Below the pieces are notes generated by a model. It searched no databases, was not told the DNA's origin, and saw only the letters and a list, made by a program, of their open reading frames with translations. Shown piece by piece: positions 1-31,992 of a stretch of DNA of 64,000 bases. Location: contig CALJRU010000030.1 in assembly GCA_937976375.1 (NCBI GenBank), positions 94,467-158,466 of the forward strand. Reading direction: 5' to 3'. The translations under genes were made by a program, and so were the position numbers. The DNA is from an uncultured Peptococcaceae bacterium. GTDB lineage: Bacteria > Bacillota > Peptococcia > Peptococcales > Peptococcaceae. How positions within the stretch are numbered: position 1 is the first letter of the stretch; each line of letters opens with the position of its first letter.

Positions 1-1
1 A

Positions 2-742
2 CATATTTCACGGCTTGAAGCTATTAAACTGCAGTTACAAAACATTATAGAGCAGGTTTACGGCCAGCATCTAACCATTGCAGATAATCTCATGCGTGAC
101 ATTTACAGCGAAAGTTATTACCGTAATGCTTTTGAAGTGTTTCAGGGAATCGGTATCGGGTGGACCTTTGCGTCCTTTGACGAAAACCACCTTGAGAAAA
201 TCTTGAATAAGCCGTGGGCACCGGATTCTTTTAATTTTTCCAAGCGTATTTGGAATAACAAAGCAAAATTGGTTGCCAACGTACAGAAATCCTTAACCCA
301 AAATCTCATACTTGGCAGCGATCCTCAAAAGTCCATCGATGACATTGCAAACAAAATGAATACGTCAAAATATAATGCTGGCCGCTTGATAATGACAGAA
401 AGCGCTTTTTTCTCCGGAGAAGCCAGAAGAGAATGTTTCAATTCTTTGGGCGTGGAACAGTACAGAATCGTGGCTACACTTGATATGAGAACATCAGAAA
501 TTTGTCGTGATATGGATGGCAAAGTGTTCAAGATGTCTGAGTATGATCCCGGTATGACGGCGCCGCCATTTCATCCTTACTGTCGAACAACGACGGCACC
601 GTATTTCGCCGATATGGACGCTTTTGCAGAGAGAGCAGCACGCGACCCAGACTCAGGAAAGACATATCATGTGCCGGCAAACATGACTTATAACGAGTGG
701 ATACAAGCTATACAGGATCAGGGGGACGAACACAATGCATAA
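2..742 (+). CDS. Phage head morphogenesis protein (SPP1 gp7 / Mu F-like), 5' partial; the frame is open to the window start
   Basis: Reading frame has no stop from position 2 to 742. The C-terminal PPFHPYCRTT resembles the conserved PxH-NCRC motif of the minor-head (gp7) family. It lies directly upstream of scaffold and capsid genes. Confidence 0.6.
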   Translation, partial: HISRLEAIKLQLQNIIEQVYGQHLTIADNLMRDIYSESYYRNAFEVFQGIGIGWTFASFDENHLEKILNKPWAPDSFNFSKRIWNNKAKLVANVQKSLTQNLILGSDPQKSIDDIANKMNTSKYNAGRLIMTESAFFSGEARRECFNSLGVEQYRIVATLDMRTSEICRDMDGKVFKMSEYDPGMTAPPFHPYCRTTTAPYFADMDAFAERAARDPDSGKTYHVPANMTYNEWIQAIQDQGDEHNA

Positions 743-944
743 ACGCAAAGAAGGTATCAATGGTCAGAGCTTTTTCCATACTGATCAGCTTCACACAGTC
801 ACCGTACCTTGTCTCTATGAAAAAGTTAAAATCTGGAATGGATCGGATTATCAAATAGGATATCGACCAATATATCTACAAGAACCGCCGGGCCAGTTGA
901 TCACCTACGGTGAGGTGGTTGAAGGGCCTGCCATAGAGATCTGA
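735..944 (+). CDS. Small hypothetical phage protein (69 aa)
   Basis: ORF overlaps the stop of the upstream gene by 8 nt (ATG inside ...ACAATGCATAA). No recognisable motif. Confidence 0.3.
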   Translation: MHKRKEGINGQSFFHTDQLHTVTVPCLYEKVKIWNGSDYQIGYRPIYLQEPPGQLITYGEVVEGPAIEI

Positions 945-945
945 A

Positions 946-971
946 TGACCTGGGCATGTCGTTAAAAGGTC
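946..971. repeat. 26-bp direct repeat, copy 1 (TGACCTGGGCATGTCGTTAAAAGGTC)
   Basis: Exact repeat of 1100..1125; the two copies flank a tRNA. Confidence 0.9.
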
Positions 972-1025
972 CGCGAACACCTCCTTTTAAATATAGGTTC
1001 CCCGAAAGCCATAGGGGAACCGCTT

Positions 1026-1098
1026 GCTGTTATGGCGCAATTGGTAGCGCAGCTGTTTTGTACTCAGCGGGTTCCAGGTTCGAATCCTGGTAGCAGCT
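1026..1098 (+). tRNA. Phage-borne tRNA, anticodon UGU (Thr) by manual folding
   Basis: Acceptor GCUGUUA/UAGCAGC (one G-U pair). D stem GCGC/GCGC with AATTGGTA loop. Anticodon stem GCTGT/TCAGC, loop TTTGTAC. T arm CCAGG-TTCGAAT-CCTGG. 73 nt, no encoded CCA. Confidence 0.65.
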
Positions 1099-1099
1099 T

Positions 1100-1125
1100 T
1101 GACCTGGGCATGTCGTTAAAAGGTC
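1100..1125. repeat. 26-bp direct repeat, copy 2
   Basis: Identical to 946..971. Confidence 0.9.
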
Positions 1126-1224
1126 TTTTTGTTATGCAAAAAATTCGCAAGCCCGGCGTAACAGGGGCAACACGCTCGTCAGGGGAAAGACGAAAAAAGC
1201 CGTAAGCGAGACAGGAGGACAATC

Positions 1225-1815
1225 ATGAAACGAGAATTTTTGTTGGAGTTGGGCATTGATAAAGAGAACGTTGATAAAATCATGGCTGAAAATGGCAAGG
1301 ATATTGCAGCGGAAAAAGCGAAGACGACGGCCGCTGAAGAATCCCTTGCAAGTTTGCAAGCCACTCTTGAAGAGGCCAACACAACTATTGCTGGCTTTAA
1401 GGAAAAAGACCTCGACGTTGAAAAGGCAAAGAACCTTGCAAAAGAGTGGGAAAAGAAATTTCAAGAGGCCGAAGAAGCAAGAGAAAAAGAGGCTAAAAAC
1501 AATGCGTTGATGCATGAACTTGCGAAAACAAATACTGTTGATGCTGAGGTTCTCAAGGCTTGCTTAAACATGGATGAAATCATTGTGAAAGATGGTAAGT
1601 TCATCGGACTTGATGATCAGATTGCAAACTTGAAAGAAAACAAGCCGTACCTGTTTGACGACAAAAAACCAACACTGAAGGGCGCTCATGTTGGAGATCC
1701 GTCGGATACAGAACCGGGAAGCGACCCTGTTGACTTTTCGAAAATGACCTATTCTGAGATGACTGACTATCTGGCAAAACACCCTGAAGCCGCTTCACTT
1801 TTAAATTCAAAATAA
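1225..1815 (+). CDS. Phage scaffolding protein (E/K-rich, coiled-coil)
   Basis: 196 aa, highly charged, alpha-helical, low-complexity. Directly upstream of the major capsid gene. RBS GGAGGA precedes the ATG. Confidence 0.55.
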   Translation: MKREFLLELGIDKENVDKIMAENGKDIAAEKAKTTAAEESLASLQATLEEANTTIAGFKEKDLDVEKAKNLAKEWEKKFQEAEEAREKEAKNNALMHELAKTNTVDAEVLKACLNMDEIIVKDGKFIGLDDQIANLKENKPYLFDDKKPTLKGAHVGDPSDTEPGSDPVDFSKMTYSEMTDYLAKHPEAASLLNSK

Positions 1816-1832
1816 TGAAAGGAAGGATATAA

Positions 1833-2909
1833 ATGTCTGCAAGATTTGATTCTAAAACTTTTAATTCTGAGGCGTTTGGTAGATATGTTGAAAGCATTCC
1901 AAACACCACAAAAGCTGAATTAGCTCGCAGCGGAGCTGTTGGCACCAACGAAAACGCAAGAAACGCTTTGTCTAATCAGACTGGCGGTCTCTATGCTAGA
2001 GTGCCTTACTTCGGACGCATTTCTGCATCCACGTCTCAAAATAATAACGGGGCGACCGATATCACAGCGACTACAACCACCACTTATGACCAGGGCTTTA
2101 TTGTTGCAAGTCGCATGGATGCGTGGGTTGAACGTAGTTTTTCCCAGAATATCACAGCTGGGGTCAATTTTATGGACCATGTGGCGCAGGAAATTGCAAA
2201 CCACTACAAGCTTGATGTGCAGCAAGGCATCCTTTTGAGCATGCTCAAAGGCATTTTTGCTATGACTACTGAAGGCGGATCTGTTGCCCAGAACGCAGCA
2301 AAGGCTTTTGTCACCAACCACACTTTCGACATTACAGCTGGTGAAGGCGACGCAGCTATGGTTGGTCCTGCTACACTTAACACTGCGATTCAGAAAGCTT
2401 GCGGTGACAATAAGCAGGTTTTCACCCTTGCGATTATGCACAGCGTGGTAGCAACTAACCTGGAAAACCAAAAGCTCCTGAAATTCTTAACTTATACCGA
2501 TGAAAACGGTATTGAAAGAGATTTGCCGCTTGCTACTTGGAATGGCCGCTTGGTTCTTGTTGATGACGGTATGCCCGTCGAAACAGACGATGATGCTGGG
2601 GGTGGGTCTTTGAAATACACGACCTACGTCCTTGGTCAGGGCGCGTTAATCCTTGACGATATTGGCGACGCAGTGCCTTATGAAATGGATCGTACGCCGG
2701 AAAAAAATGGCGGGCAGGATACATTGTATGTTCGTGACCGCTTTATTTGCGGTGCGACGGGTATTTCCTTTGAAAAAGGTGCTGACATTACGGCATCCGC
2801 TTCCAACGAGGATTTAGCCAAAGGGACAAACTGGGCTGTAATCAATGATGGTGTTACCGCTATTCCTGATAAGGCAATCCCAATTGCGCGTATTATCTCT
2901 AAGGGCTGA
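1833..2909 (+). CDS. Phage major capsid protein
   Basis: 358 aa ORF placed after head-morphogenesis and scaffold genes. RBS GAAAGGAAGG. Size typical of a capsid protein. Confidence 0.55.
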   Translation: MSARFDSKTFNSEAFGRYVESIPNTTKAELARSGAVGTNENARNALSNQTGGLYARVPYFGRISASTSQNNNGATDITATTTTTYDQGFIVASRMDAWVERSFSQNITAGVNFMDHVAQEIANHYKLDVQQGILLSMLKGIFAMTTEGGSVAQNAAKAFVTNHTFDITAGEGDAAMVGPATLNTAIQKACGDNKQVFTLAIMHSVVATNLENQKLLKFLTYTDENGIERDLPLATWNGRLVLVDDGMPVETDDDAGGGSLKYTTYVLGQGALILDDIGDAVPYEMDRTPEKNGGQDTLYVRDRFICGATGISFEKGADITASASNEDLAKGTNWAVINDGVTAIPDKAIPIARIISKG

Positions 2910-2914
2910 TTGCT

Positions 2915-3352
2915 ATGGGTACCATCTATGAAGCGGTTGACACTATTAGCGATGAGCTTCTGGAACTGGTTGATTCCTACTTTGACACCACTGTACTAGA
3001 TTTAAAGGGCGACGCTTTCGCGCGAAAAGTGAAACGCGCCCTTTTTGATTTGTTACACGAATGTAATCGAATGGATCTACCGGATTCAGCTAGATTGCCA
3101 TTTTTACAACTAGTTATCGATGATGCAACCATTGATGCGTATGAAGCGGGGATCATCGAGCCTGATATGGACACCGTGAGCAAAGAAAAGCCTACCAATA
3201 GCGTGAGCGTTAAATCGACCAATGTTTCTTTCGGAAAATCAGATTATGAAATTTTGAGGGACGATAGAAAAAATCTCTACGCGCAAATGCGTGAAGACGT
3301 TATTCGAAAATGGTATGAGCTTACAGTTACACTGAGAAAGGTCAGGTGGTAA
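2915..3352 (+). CDS. Phage head-tail connector/adaptor-like protein (putative)
   Basis: 145 aa, tightly packed after the capsid gene. Call is by position only. Confidence 0.3.
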   Translation: MGTIYEAVDTISDELLELVDSYFDTTVLDLKGDAFARKVKRALFDLLHECNRMDLPDSARLPFLQLVIDDATIDAYEAGIIEPDMDTVSKEKPTNSVSVKSTNVSFGKSDYEILRDDRKNLYAQMREDVIRKWYELTVTLRKVRW

Positions 3353-17986: not shown

Positions 17987-18074
17987 CGGAGAGAAGGGGA
18001 TTCGAACCCCTGATACGGTTCCCCGTATACACGATTTCCAGTCGTGCTCCTTCAGCCAAACTCGGACATCTCTC
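17987..18074 (-). tRNA. tRNA-Ser (anticodon GGA), long variable arm
   Basis: The reverse complement folds as GGAGAGA acceptor, anticodon loop CUGGAAA, long extra arm, T arm GGGGTTCGAATCCCC, 3' TCTCTCC-G. 88 nt. Confidence 0.8.
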
Positions 18075-18240
18075 CTCACTCAGCGAATATAATTTTATCA
18101 AAAGGAGGGGGGATTTGTCAATCCTTAATTCGATTTCTTTTCAATTTTTTTGCGATTTTTTTACGTTGCGAAGGTGTTGCGGTGCTGTTGCGTGTATTTG
18201 CTGTGCAATTCTGTTATAGTTGAAGCCAAGGAGGTGAGGC

Positions 18241-31919: not shown

Positions 31920-31992
31920 AGCCGACAATGGGACTCGAACCCGCAACCTGCTGATTACAAATCAGCTGCTCTACCAATTGAGCTATATCGGC
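31920..31992 (-). tRNA. tRNA-Thr (anticodon UGU)
   Basis: The reverse complement GCCGATATAGCTCAATTGGTAGAGCAGCTGATTTGTAATCAGC... has loop UUUGUAA. Confidence 0.8.

Follow-up and report, generated by a model that had tools for sequence, protein, structure and literature searches.

Exoribonuclease-resistant RNAs (xrRNAs) have so far been described only in viruses of eukaryotes. One of them, coremin or xrRNA-C, is found in plant and other RNA viruses and is known from RNA3 of BNYVV (Dilweg, Gultyaev, Olsthoorn 2019, PMC6546385; Dilweg, Peer, Olsthoorn 2023, PMC10520033). In beny- and cucumoviruses, coremin has the sequence GUCCGAAGACGUUAAACUAC, comprising a first hairpin (hp1) of 3–5 bp with a YGAD loop, a conserved spacer of 10 nt, and a second hairpin, hp2 (PMC6546385, PMC10520033). 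Coremin stalls Xrn1 just upstream of hp1, and hp2 is needed for the stalling (PMC6546385, PMC10520033). Variants with loops of 5–8 nt are found across the RNA virome, the octaloop being functional (PMC6546385, PMC10520033); GRV has a functional 8-nt loop ending in C (PMC10520033). The element also stalls scanning ribosomes (PMC10520033), and a pseudoknot has been suspected for it (PMC10321173). As to bacterial nucleases, a flaviviral xrRNA blocks RNase J1 of B. subtilis in vitro, an enzyme that xrRNAs are said to “never naturally encounter” (PMC5760640).

Optional genes flanked by short repeated motifs are, in turn, known from the PeSL cassettes of T4-type phages (Arbiol et al. 2010, PMC2839356; Comeau et al. 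2014, PMC4122927). These resemble the locus described below in that an optional gene lies between copies of a short regulatory motif, that the motif bounds the indels between close relatives, and that modules of otherwise collinear phages seem to be gained, lost, and shuffled through homology which the motifs provide. At the same time, a PeSL consists, at the DNA level, of an early promoter and a stem-loop terminator and belongs to T4-like myoviruses, whereas the motif considered here is a predicted RNA pseudoknot containing neither a sigma-70 promoter nor an intrinsic terminator, and its cargo is a tRNA situated in the late head operon.

Another familiar class of additions is represented by phage morons, i.e., extra self-contained units between two genes which are adjacent in relatives. 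The unit studied here is likewise self-contained and, as is the case with phage tRNAs, its tRNA fits a codon commoner in the phage than in the host. Unlike in a moron, no promoter or terminator of its own was detected; the unit seems to be built for excision from the operon transcript, with a putative shield on each side.

The tRNA Cassette in the Late Operon

The locus is situated near the left end of the window (this term denotes the whole stretch of DNA analysed, 64 kb in length). All ORFs from position 1 to ~17.8 kb are phage-like and reside on the + strand; a tRNA-Ser is found at 17987-18075. The features of the region in question are as follows:

92..742, + strand: 3' part of a head-morphogenesis (minor head) gene, SPP1 gp7-like (Pfam PF04233 Phage_Mu_F, E = 1.7e-16; ORF list)
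735..944, + strand: small ORF of 69 aa (ORF list), specific to this phage sub-lineage
946..972, + strand: predicted pseudoknot copy 1, repeat 1 (exact repeat; covariance model R1 35.5 bits, E ~8e-6; family-wide covariation of both helices)
973..995, + strand: C/U-rich tract including CACCUCCUUUU at 978-988 (sequence; compared with L031, L082, L084, and L087)
996..1021, + strand: GC-rich hairpin GGTTCCCC-(10 nt)-GGGGAACC with an 8-bp stem and a 10-nt loop (sequence and fold)
1026..1098, + strand: tRNA-Thr(UGU) of 73 nt, CCA not encoded (ARAGORN; Rfam RF00005, 64.1 bits at a gathering score of 29)
1100..1126, + strand: predicted pseudoknot copy 2, repeat 2 (exact repeat; R1 39.3 bits, E ~1e-6)
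1127..1224, + strand: 5' leader of the scaffold gene (U-run, then UAUGC, small hairpins, and the SD AGGAGG at 1213-1218)
1225-1815, + strand: scaffold gene (Pfam Phage_scaffold, E = 2.4e-35)
1833-2909, + strand: major capsid gene (capsid relatives in IMG/VR; coat protein of phage phiCT453A)

Within the late operon, the ORF at 92-742 is the low-copy gene on the upstream side, and the scaffold and capsid genes 3' of the pseudoknot are its high-copy genes. The placement of the cassette between head morphogenesis and scaffold genes, as proposed in the initial annotation, is thus borne out by the Pfam assignments (Phage_Mu_F and Phage_scaffold). The perfect 26-bp direct repeats reported there are exact as well: the 26-mer TGACCTGGGCATGTCGTTAAAAGGTC occurs on the + strand at 946-971 and 1100-1125, and shuffled windows contained no match to it even at 3 mismatches. 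The repeat is exactly 26 bp long, since identity ends at the adjacent bases (A vs. T to the left, C vs. T to the right). The distance from the end of the small ORF to the first repeat is 2 nt, and in relatives this ORF terminates at a stop codon within the pseudoknot (GACC-UGA-GC). The hairpin is separated from pseudoknot 1 by the C/U-rich tract, a feature of all tRNA modules of the family. The hairpin, annotated earlier from ~998, is real and begins two bases further to the left. It is separated from the tRNA by 4 nt, and pseudoknot copy 2 begins 2 nt 3' of the tRNA end. Hairpins of unrelated sequence occupy the same place, 3–4 nt 5' of the tRNA, in L031, L082, L084, and L087.

Both ARAGORN and Rfam accept the 73-nt tRNA-Thr(UGU) that had been recognized in the sequence. 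It features a 7-bp acceptor stem, the D, anticodon, and T arms, and the conserved T-loop GTTCGAATC; its anticodon arm contains a U31-U39 mismatch and C38. The cloverleaf is maintained by compensatory changes: across six tRNAs, both sides have changed in 8 of the 20 pairs. The host-type tRNA-Thr with the same anticodon, located by ARAGORN on the - strand at 31920-31992, is indeed diverged from the phage one, matching it at 56 of 73 positions. The comparison of ACA usage, suggested along with the annotation, gave modest support to a role in decoding: ACA makes up 34.8% of the Thr codons in prophage ORFs vs. 27.5% in host ORFs (OR 1.40, p = 0.012), and Thr accounts for 7.4% of the prophage codons vs. 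5.3% of the host ones. Judging from these figures, the phage tRNA plausibly tops up ACA/ACU decoding for the Thr-rich phage genes.

Searches with the sequences of the region returned little. At the nucleotide level, positions 1-3000 of the window had only distant capsid or minor-head matches among cultured phages, the exact 26-mer had no match in IMG/VR, and neither the scaffold protein nor the product of the small ORF had an exact counterpart among recorded proteins. Neither a sigma-70-like promoter nor an intrinsic terminator was detected at 600-1500, except for one chance-level site inside the scaffold gene, and no RNase J gene was found within the 64-kb window. Folding of single sequences gave unremarkable z-scores, as is expected for a short pseudoknot.

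An Optional and Exchangeable Module in Related Phages

The comparison included 80 IMG/VR loci with related capsid genes, and the sub-lineage was then found using the small ORF as a query; the context with the small ORF is known from only ~7 related loci. Its homologues in L031, L082, L083, L087, and L090 display 54–91% identity. Among the 80 capsid-related loci, a tRNA occupied the slot between the head and scaffold genes in two, L031, with a homologous tRNA-Thr, and L018. The latter belongs to another lineage and harbors an unrelated tRNA-Gln behind a terminator-like hairpin, without the motif. A search pattern based on the tRNA matched the L031 contig alone in IMG/VR.

Relatives with a single 26-mer and no cassette, which the initial annotation had suggested looking for, do exist. 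In L083 and L090, there is one 26-mer-like copy but no hairpin and no tRNA: the small ORF joins this copy on the left and the leader joins it on the right. The single copy aligns to copy 2 of the window, which, by this alignment, represents the resident copy heading the scaffold–capsid leader in the tRNA-less relatives. The leader itself is 76–84% identical to those of L082, L083, and L087, and a similar layout is found in phages B166 and Lj771. The tRNA type of the window, at 92% identity, recurs in L087, L088, and L089. By contrast, L082, a Peptococcaceae MAG, carries in the same frame a non-orthologous tRNA-Thr(UGU), only 63% identical to that of the window vs. 79–81% for the flanks (81% for the motifs and 79% for the leader). 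Since L083 and L090 are empty and the tRNA of L082 differs within conserved flanks, the tRNA unit is an optional, exchangeable module; judging from these identities, the replacement of the tRNA within conserved flanks has occurred. The module begins with a pseudoknot of its own and, combined with the resident leader, it therefore gives the order pseudoknot-tRNA-pseudoknot. The boundaries of the indels between relatives lie within the motif, and L084 contains a second motif-tRNA unit at another site.

Taken together, these comparisons let us infer that the module has probably been gained, lost, and swapped by homologous recombination between the pseudoknot copies. Of the mobility suggested in the initial annotation, the idea of a moveable tRNA cassette therefore stands in the form of an optional, exchangeable module; the repeat as such is neither an att site nor a target duplication. 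Likewise, insertion by homologous recombination, here between copies of an RNA motif, is retained as the likely route, and site-specific insertion is not, the repeat being a structured motif present in hundreds of phages and in RNA viruses.

The perfect identity of the two copies (26/26) is an exception found in the window: in the tRNA-bearing relatives, the flanking copies are identical at 17–18 of 26 positions or worse. It probably reflects a recent event in this prophage, i.e., re-insertion into the resident copy or gene conversion. The copy of L083 resembles the 5' half of the upstream copy of L082 joined to the 3' half of its downstream copy; the copies of the window similarly resemble an upstream-type 5' half followed by a downstream-type 3' half, as at the empty sites. 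This half-and-half look weakly suggests a loss followed by re-insertion.

The same observations admit another history, in which the module is ancestral to the clade with the small ORF, the empty sites are deletions between motif copies, and the 26/26 identity stems from local gene conversion. This variant has a real, if less than even, chance of being correct. It is favored by the sharing of one tRNA type, with compensatory changes, between the window, L087, and the most divergent members, L031 and L084, and by the appearance of the single L083 copy as a recombinant of an upstream and a downstream half. Against it, the C/U tract and hairpin of the window are unrelated to those of L087 (31% identity) despite 92% identity of the tRNAs, the tRNA of L082 is different, and few relatives have been sampled. 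Because of the tract and hairpin of L087 and the differing tRNA of L082, some replacement by recombination must have taken place.

A Conserved Pseudoknot with Two Covarying Helices

The comparative evidence indicates that the two 26-mers are copies of a conserved H-type RNA pseudoknot of ~26 nt. In the general plan of the motif, N1-N2-C3 pairs with G12-N13-N14 to form hp1, a two-base linker CU follows, and the helix S2 is formed by G6-xxx-A10 and U22-xxx-C26, with GUUAAAC as the crossing strand. The loop conforms to CUGNNNAN, with Y in the first, G in the third, A in the seventh, and any base in the last position. The motif comprises a 3-bp hp1 (GAC/GUC in the window), an 8-nt loop, the invariant spacer GUUAAA(C), and a second helix between the loop and the 4–5 nt following the spacer. 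Specifically, in copy 1, G947-A-C949 pairs with G958-U-C960 to form hp1 with the loop CUGGGCAU and the spacer GUUAAA(A), and G952-GGC955 pairs with G969-UCC972 to form S2.

The family was collected by scanning IMG/VR with a degenerate pattern built from the copies described above, which matched at least 120 contigs; a second scan, with hp1 left free, also matched at least 120 contigs. The sequence GTTAAA was part of the search patterns. Among the listed matches, the positions left unconstrained were visibly complementary. The S2 helix, which joins the loop with the bases after GTCGTTAAA, was 90% paired in 108 distinct copies, with 95 double-change cells; none of 500 shuffles was as good, and slid pairings reached 33–41%. 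In the scan with hp1 left free, hp1 was fully paired in 157 of 162 distinct copies and was represented by 10 pair types (GAC/GUC, GUC/GAC, GCC/GGC, CAC/GUG, and AUC/GAU among them). A count for the pseudoknot, made on hand-selected rows, showed 98% pairing vs. 24–54% in slid controls. The covariance model scored the copies of the window at 39 and 35 bits and detected no further copy in the 64 kb. Rfam, even at loose thresholds, contained no family for the motif, and a full-text search of the literature for its sequence returned matches to primers and siRNAs only.

Several other identities were considered and discarded. Thus, the BPROM promoter annotation placed over the motif in S. aureus phage records is at odds with the unfit hexamer spacing, the empty promoter scan, and the presence of the motif in RNA viruses; an intrinsic terminator would require a stronger stem, and none was detected by the scan. 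Inspection of the sequence or context led us to set aside dif/Xer sites, IS200/IS605 ends, REP elements, CRISPR-repeat mimics, SECIS, a mimic of the 16S A-site, and boxA, and the pistol ribozyme shares only CGUUAAA with the motif. The core of integrons is GTTRRRY, to which GTTAAAC conforms, and direct repeats at cassette borders are also typical of integron attC and tyrosine-recombinase att sites. Nevertheless, the locus lacks an inverse core and an integrase, the covariation is of the RNA type, and the motif is found in RNA viruses.

Resemblance to Coremin

The closest likeness of the motif is to coremin. Both have an hp1 of 3 bp, and the GUC...GAC stem of coremin itself occurs in 42 phage copies; in phages, as in coremin, hp1 varies in sequence yet remains paired, i.e., the structure counts for more than the sequence. 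The phage loop starts with a pyrimidine and ends with A-N and may in this be comparable to that of coremin; the start of the spacer (GUUAAACU) is identical, and, as in coremin, the motif is intergenic or located just after stop codons. The phage subtype with GUC/GAC, GUCC[UGAGCAU]GACGUUAAACUGC, is almost identical to coremin outside the enlarged loop. The consensus of lp1 in coremin is YGAD/YGNNAD, to be compared with the 8-nt CUGNNNAN of phages. The coremin spacer GUUAAACUAC agrees with the consensus of the phage family, GUUAAACUGC, at 9 of 10 positions (GTTAAA being part of the search patterns), and with the spacer of the window, GUUAAAAGGU, at only 6 of 10.

There are differences as well. 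The phage loop is always 8 nt long, and 4–5 of its bases pair just after GUUAAAC(U), which makes the motif an H-type pseudoknot. Its carriers are DNA phages of bacteria, where Xrn1 is absent. A hairpin corresponding to hp2 was not detected as a general feature after the spacer: in 26-nt windows 3' of 148 copies, the mean MFE was -2.53 vs. -2.80 and -2.82 in the controls. Since there is no general hp2, the phage version is architecturally different from coremin; given also that the loop pairs past the spacer, the motif is to be regarded as a coremin variant rather than a member. At the same time, the covariation of S2 in phages gives support to a pseudoknot which was previously only suspected for coremin (PMC10321173); provided that the kinship holds, the phage motif would supply the covariation support for the coremin pseudoknot. 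The xrRNAs of flaviviruses and of tombusviruses/luteoviruses share with the motif the proposed principle, i.e., a compact knot-like fold mechanically stopping 5'-to-3' exonucleases. They are, however, ring-forming three-way junctions of 45–70 nt with no sequence or secondary-structure similarity to it.

The coremin papers PMC6546385 and PMC10520033 do not deal with phages; the words “phage”, “bacteria”, and “RNase J” do not occur in PMC10520033. The literature search found no report of a phage xrRNA or of phage xrRNA in connection with RNase J, and none of GIR1 in phages. A coremin-like pseudoknot appears to be undescribed in bacteriophages. If the assignment is true, viruses of prokaryotes would here have their first known xrRNA. 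The size of 26 nt and the double covariation make the motif attractive for structural work on enzyme stopping of the coremin type.

Distribution of the Motif

Over 300 phage contigs contain the motif, in most cases once and without an insert. The initial annotation had named a regulatory repeat devoid of insertion logic as the finding that would speak against it, and this is in part what emerged: a covarying RNA element that is mostly single-copy and insert-free. Cultured carriers include the S. aureus siphoviruses phiETA, phiNM4, 55, 80, 88, B166, and others, the Lactobacillus phages Lj771, KC5a, LL-H, and mv4, and Streptococcus phage EJ-1. Further carriers are phages of Bacillus (Page), B. 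megaterium, Anoxybacillus, Arthrobacter, and Cellulosimicrobium, as well as Rhizobium jumbo phages, a Nostoc phage, and crAss-like phages.

In B166, Lj771, and Bacillus phage Page, the motif occupies the same slot as in the window, i.e., after the minor-head/portal gene and 35–60 nt 5' of a scaffold-like gene preceding the major capsid gene. In well-studied phages of S. aureus, Lactobacillus, and Bacillus, it thus marks the boundary between low-copy (portal, minor head) and high-copy (scaffold, capsid) genes. Many copies precede tRNAs or ribozymes. In Arthrobacter phage Amigo, the motif ends 1 nt 5' of a tRNA-Gly, and the phage tRNA arrays L149, L182, and L171 from IMG/VR exhibit the motif-tRNA-motif order seen in the window. 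About 19 of 139 copies head small contigs, in which a match to the GIR1 lariat-capping ribozyme, full-length and below the threshold, comes next. The strand carrying the motif was the sense strand of the neighbouring genes in 6 of 6 annotated cases. The motif was also found in narna-like RNA virus contigs; the polymerase of one of them, L118, has a homologue named Narnaviridae RdRp, although sequence searches of Pfam, NCBIfam, and PDB provided no name for it. Since these viruses have no DNA stage, the motif must work at the RNA level.

As to the hosts, the GAC/GUC consensus had no match in 5,426 E. coli genomes, and its matches in plasmids were mainly to Firmicutes records. With other hp1 subtypes, a clade of Vibrio phages proved to carry near-canonical copies, and Chaseviridae infecting E. 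coli, Yersinia, and Erwinia, diverged ones. To our knowledge, Vibrio hosts lack RNase J. The prediction that the motif would be confined to hosts possessing RNase J has therefore failed in part, and, because of the copies in Vibrio phages and Chaseviridae, the target may extend beyond RNase J to any 5'-to-3' translocating enzyme, or be a different one.

Possible Function and Alternative Explanations

The reading we favor, to which we assign an even chance, is that a shield pseudoknot stands at the 5' head of each of two RNA units in the locus, the units being shuffled by recombination between the copies. According to it, RNase P would cut the long late transcript at the tRNA, and RNase Z would do so as well, since the tRNA has no encoded CCA. 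The hairpin 4 nt 5' of the tRNA would cap the upstream mRNA at its newly made 3' end, keeping off 3' exonucleases, and the pseudoknot 2 nt 3' of the tRNA would shield the new 5'-monophosphate end of the scaffold–capsid mRNA from 5'-to-3' decay, the enzyme in this Firmicute host being most likely RNase J. Copy 1 could shield the tRNA precursor likewise, though RNase P removes whatever lies directly 5' of a tRNA, so that a shield there has no obvious use. The tRNA would add ACA/ACU decoding capacity for the Thr-rich phage genes. In the tRNA-less genomes, the motif would allow the transcripts of the high-copy head genes to be stable independently of those of the low-copy genes upstream. Protection of RNA by the motif against RNase J is a putative role.

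In its broader form, the proposal is that phages carry a natural xrRNA, a 26-nt pseudoknot homologous to coremin of eukaryotic RNA viruses, which would serve as a portable 5' shield against RNase J or a different enzyme translocating 5'-to-3', placed in front of capsid mRNAs, tRNAs, and ribozymes, and whose copies would double as recombination handles for the exchange of tRNA modules between phages. We put this forward tentatively, as a conjunction somewhat more apt to fail than to hold. If the element works in this way, genes of a single late transcript could be expressed at unequal levels by simple means, and tRNAs could be safely released from mRNAs. The case also illustrates how so small a functional RNA may furnish the homology by which modules are shuffled between phages.

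Among the alternatives concerning function, the one which survives best is that the motif is a cis-regulatory site for a protein, the ribosome, or the transcription complex (e.g., a translational operator of scaffold and capsid, a ribosome roadblock, or an antitermination or anti-Rho site of the nut/boxA kind) rather than a nuclease shield, its copies being the regulatory heads of two units. The position in the 5' leader, 55–100 nt before scaffold genes in many phages, and the strongly conserved spacer would suit such a site, and coremin does stall scanning ribosomes (PMC10520033). The copies in Vibrio phages, whose hosts are believed to be devoid of RNase J, are also consistent with a target of a more general kind. 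Antitermination classically serves untranslated stretches, tRNAs and ribozymes among them, and their proximity to the motif would agree with it. On the other hand, the same untranslated neighbours, preceded by many of the copies, tell against a translational role. The carriers share no evident proteins and span several bacterial phyla as well as RNA viruses, which makes a specific protein partner unlikely. The sole lead as to function comes from the close match to an exonuclease block proven by experiment. On balance, a cis-regulatory site is an unlikely explanation.

More doubtful still is a processing signal, i.e., “punctuation” cleaved by an endonuclease, so that the tRNA and the head genes of high copy number become detached from the other parts of the operon. 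It would account for the position of the motif at the boundaries of units (from a stop codon to the next unit and in tRNA spacers). Yet there is no known bacterial endonuclease for such a site in hosts ranging from Firmicutes to Rhizobium, the motif is also present in RNA viruses of other hosts, the tRNAs already supply the RNase P and RNase Z cuts, and a compact pseudoknot with two covarying helices suggests a fold, not a cleavage sequence.

The least probable reading, largely refuted by now and deserving very little credence, takes the 26-mers for att-like sites or for a target-site duplication, traces of a mobile tRNA cassette that integrated site-specifically or transposed: perfect direct repeats (26/26) do bracket the insert and relatives with exactly one copy and no insert do exist, but target duplications known to us are far shorter than 26 bp, no recombinase is associated with the locus, the family resides in hundreds of unrelated phage contigs and in cultured phages, mostly single-copy and insert-free, the covariation in both helices is of the RNA type, the motif is found in RNA viruses, and the border copies of the relatives differ from each other at 8–9 of 26 positions.

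Ribozyme-Like Sequences and the Promoter Label at the Pseudoknot

Full-length matches to the Rfam model GIR1, the lariat-capping (branching) ribozyme, were found in about 19 IMG/VR contigs among the matches listed, directly 3' of the pseudoknot and shortly 5' of an ORF. They score below the Rfam threshold (23–45 bits, best E 5e-8), retain the hallmark blocks AUGGGGUU, CCAAAACGG, UUCCGUGCUAA, ACUACACGGC and AUCCCAUACA, and lie on contigs shorter than 5 kb, one of which encodes a narna-like RdRp. They include the following loci:

Sub-threshold GIR1-like matches (Rfam GIR1)
L118 1442–1689, + strand
L123 806–1058, + strand
L138 923–1154, − strand
L144 184–420, − strand
L135 392–668, − strand

This suggests that, in RNA viruses, a ribozyme of the lariat-capping type separates the polymerase gene from the gene downstream; a literature search found no paper on such a ribozyme at an RNA-virus gene junction of this kind.

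In the public record of Staphylococcus aureus phage B166, a BPROM-predicted “promoter” (L211 2507–2543) occupies the exact position of the pseudoknot, and the same label is placed over it in the records of B236, B122 and phiJB. This label is probably wrong, since the pseudoknot displays covariation and the motif is also present in RNA viruses.

Recurring Elements Flanking the Pseudoknot

The leader spanning from the pseudoknot to the scaffold RBS has a layout recurring in distant phages: a run of U residues and UAUGC come first, followed by a small hairpin whose loop resembles GCG(A/U)A, an A-rich segment, ACG and finally the SD. This leader may represent a second cis-element.

Scaffold leaders
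Window 1127–1224
L083 (relative at the same slot) 632–731
L211 (S. aureus phage B166) 2528–2587
L212 (Lactobacillus Lj771) 2534–2586

Upstream, in every tRNA module (that of the window and those of four relatives), pseudoknot copy 1 is separated from the hairpin by a C/U-rich tract.

C/U-rich tracts
Window 973–995 (CACCUCCUUUU at 978–988)
L082 6227–6250
L087 1973–1998
L031 4178–4200
L084 5461–5495

The tract of the window matches the anti-Shine–Dalgarno end of 16S rRNA (CACCUCCUUU). An RNA of about 75 nt comprising the pseudoknot, tract and hairpin, protected at both ends and possessing an SD-binding seed, could persist after RNase P cleavage.

Peculiarities of the tRNA Genes

The phage tRNA-Thr of the window (anticodon arm 1052–1068) shares a U31–U39 mismatch and C38 with the type-A relatives L031 and L087, whereas the host tRNA-Thr(UGU) has A31–U39 and A38. 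Anticodon-arm changes of this kind are a proposed route for phage tRNAs to evade host anticodon nucleases.

In motif-bearing phage tRNA arrays, tRNA-Tyr(GUA)-like genes are enlarged by additional nucleotides, located either within the D arm or directly after the anticodon, and ARAGORN either makes no call or labels them “tRNA-???”; these tRNAs may contain introns or be atypical in some other way.

tRNA-Tyr(GUA)-like genes
L182 5613–5720
L176 about 3225–3330
L210
L149 11585–11665

In a different capsid lineage (L018 4166–4288), the minor-head/scaffold slot harbors a tRNA-Gln(UUG) but no pseudoknot; a terminator-like hairpin with a perfect 14-bp stem stands before this tRNA. The slot as such seems to be a favored location for tRNAs.

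Escherichia phage EcoM1 (Chaseviridae; L307 840–1860) displays about 850 nt devoid of annotated genes, with diverged motif-like hairpins inside:

L307 1500–1526, GCCCUGAGCAUGGAAAUAAACUGCUC
L307 near 1048, GGGCCUAAACUGCCC

A tRNA-like sequence with an insertion, not called by ARAGORN, lies near L307 1744–1838.

The left end of the prophage is outside the window. A tRNA-Ser(GGA) (17987–18075, − strand) directly follows the last + strand phage-like ORF (end 17784) and is a likely prophage attachment site.
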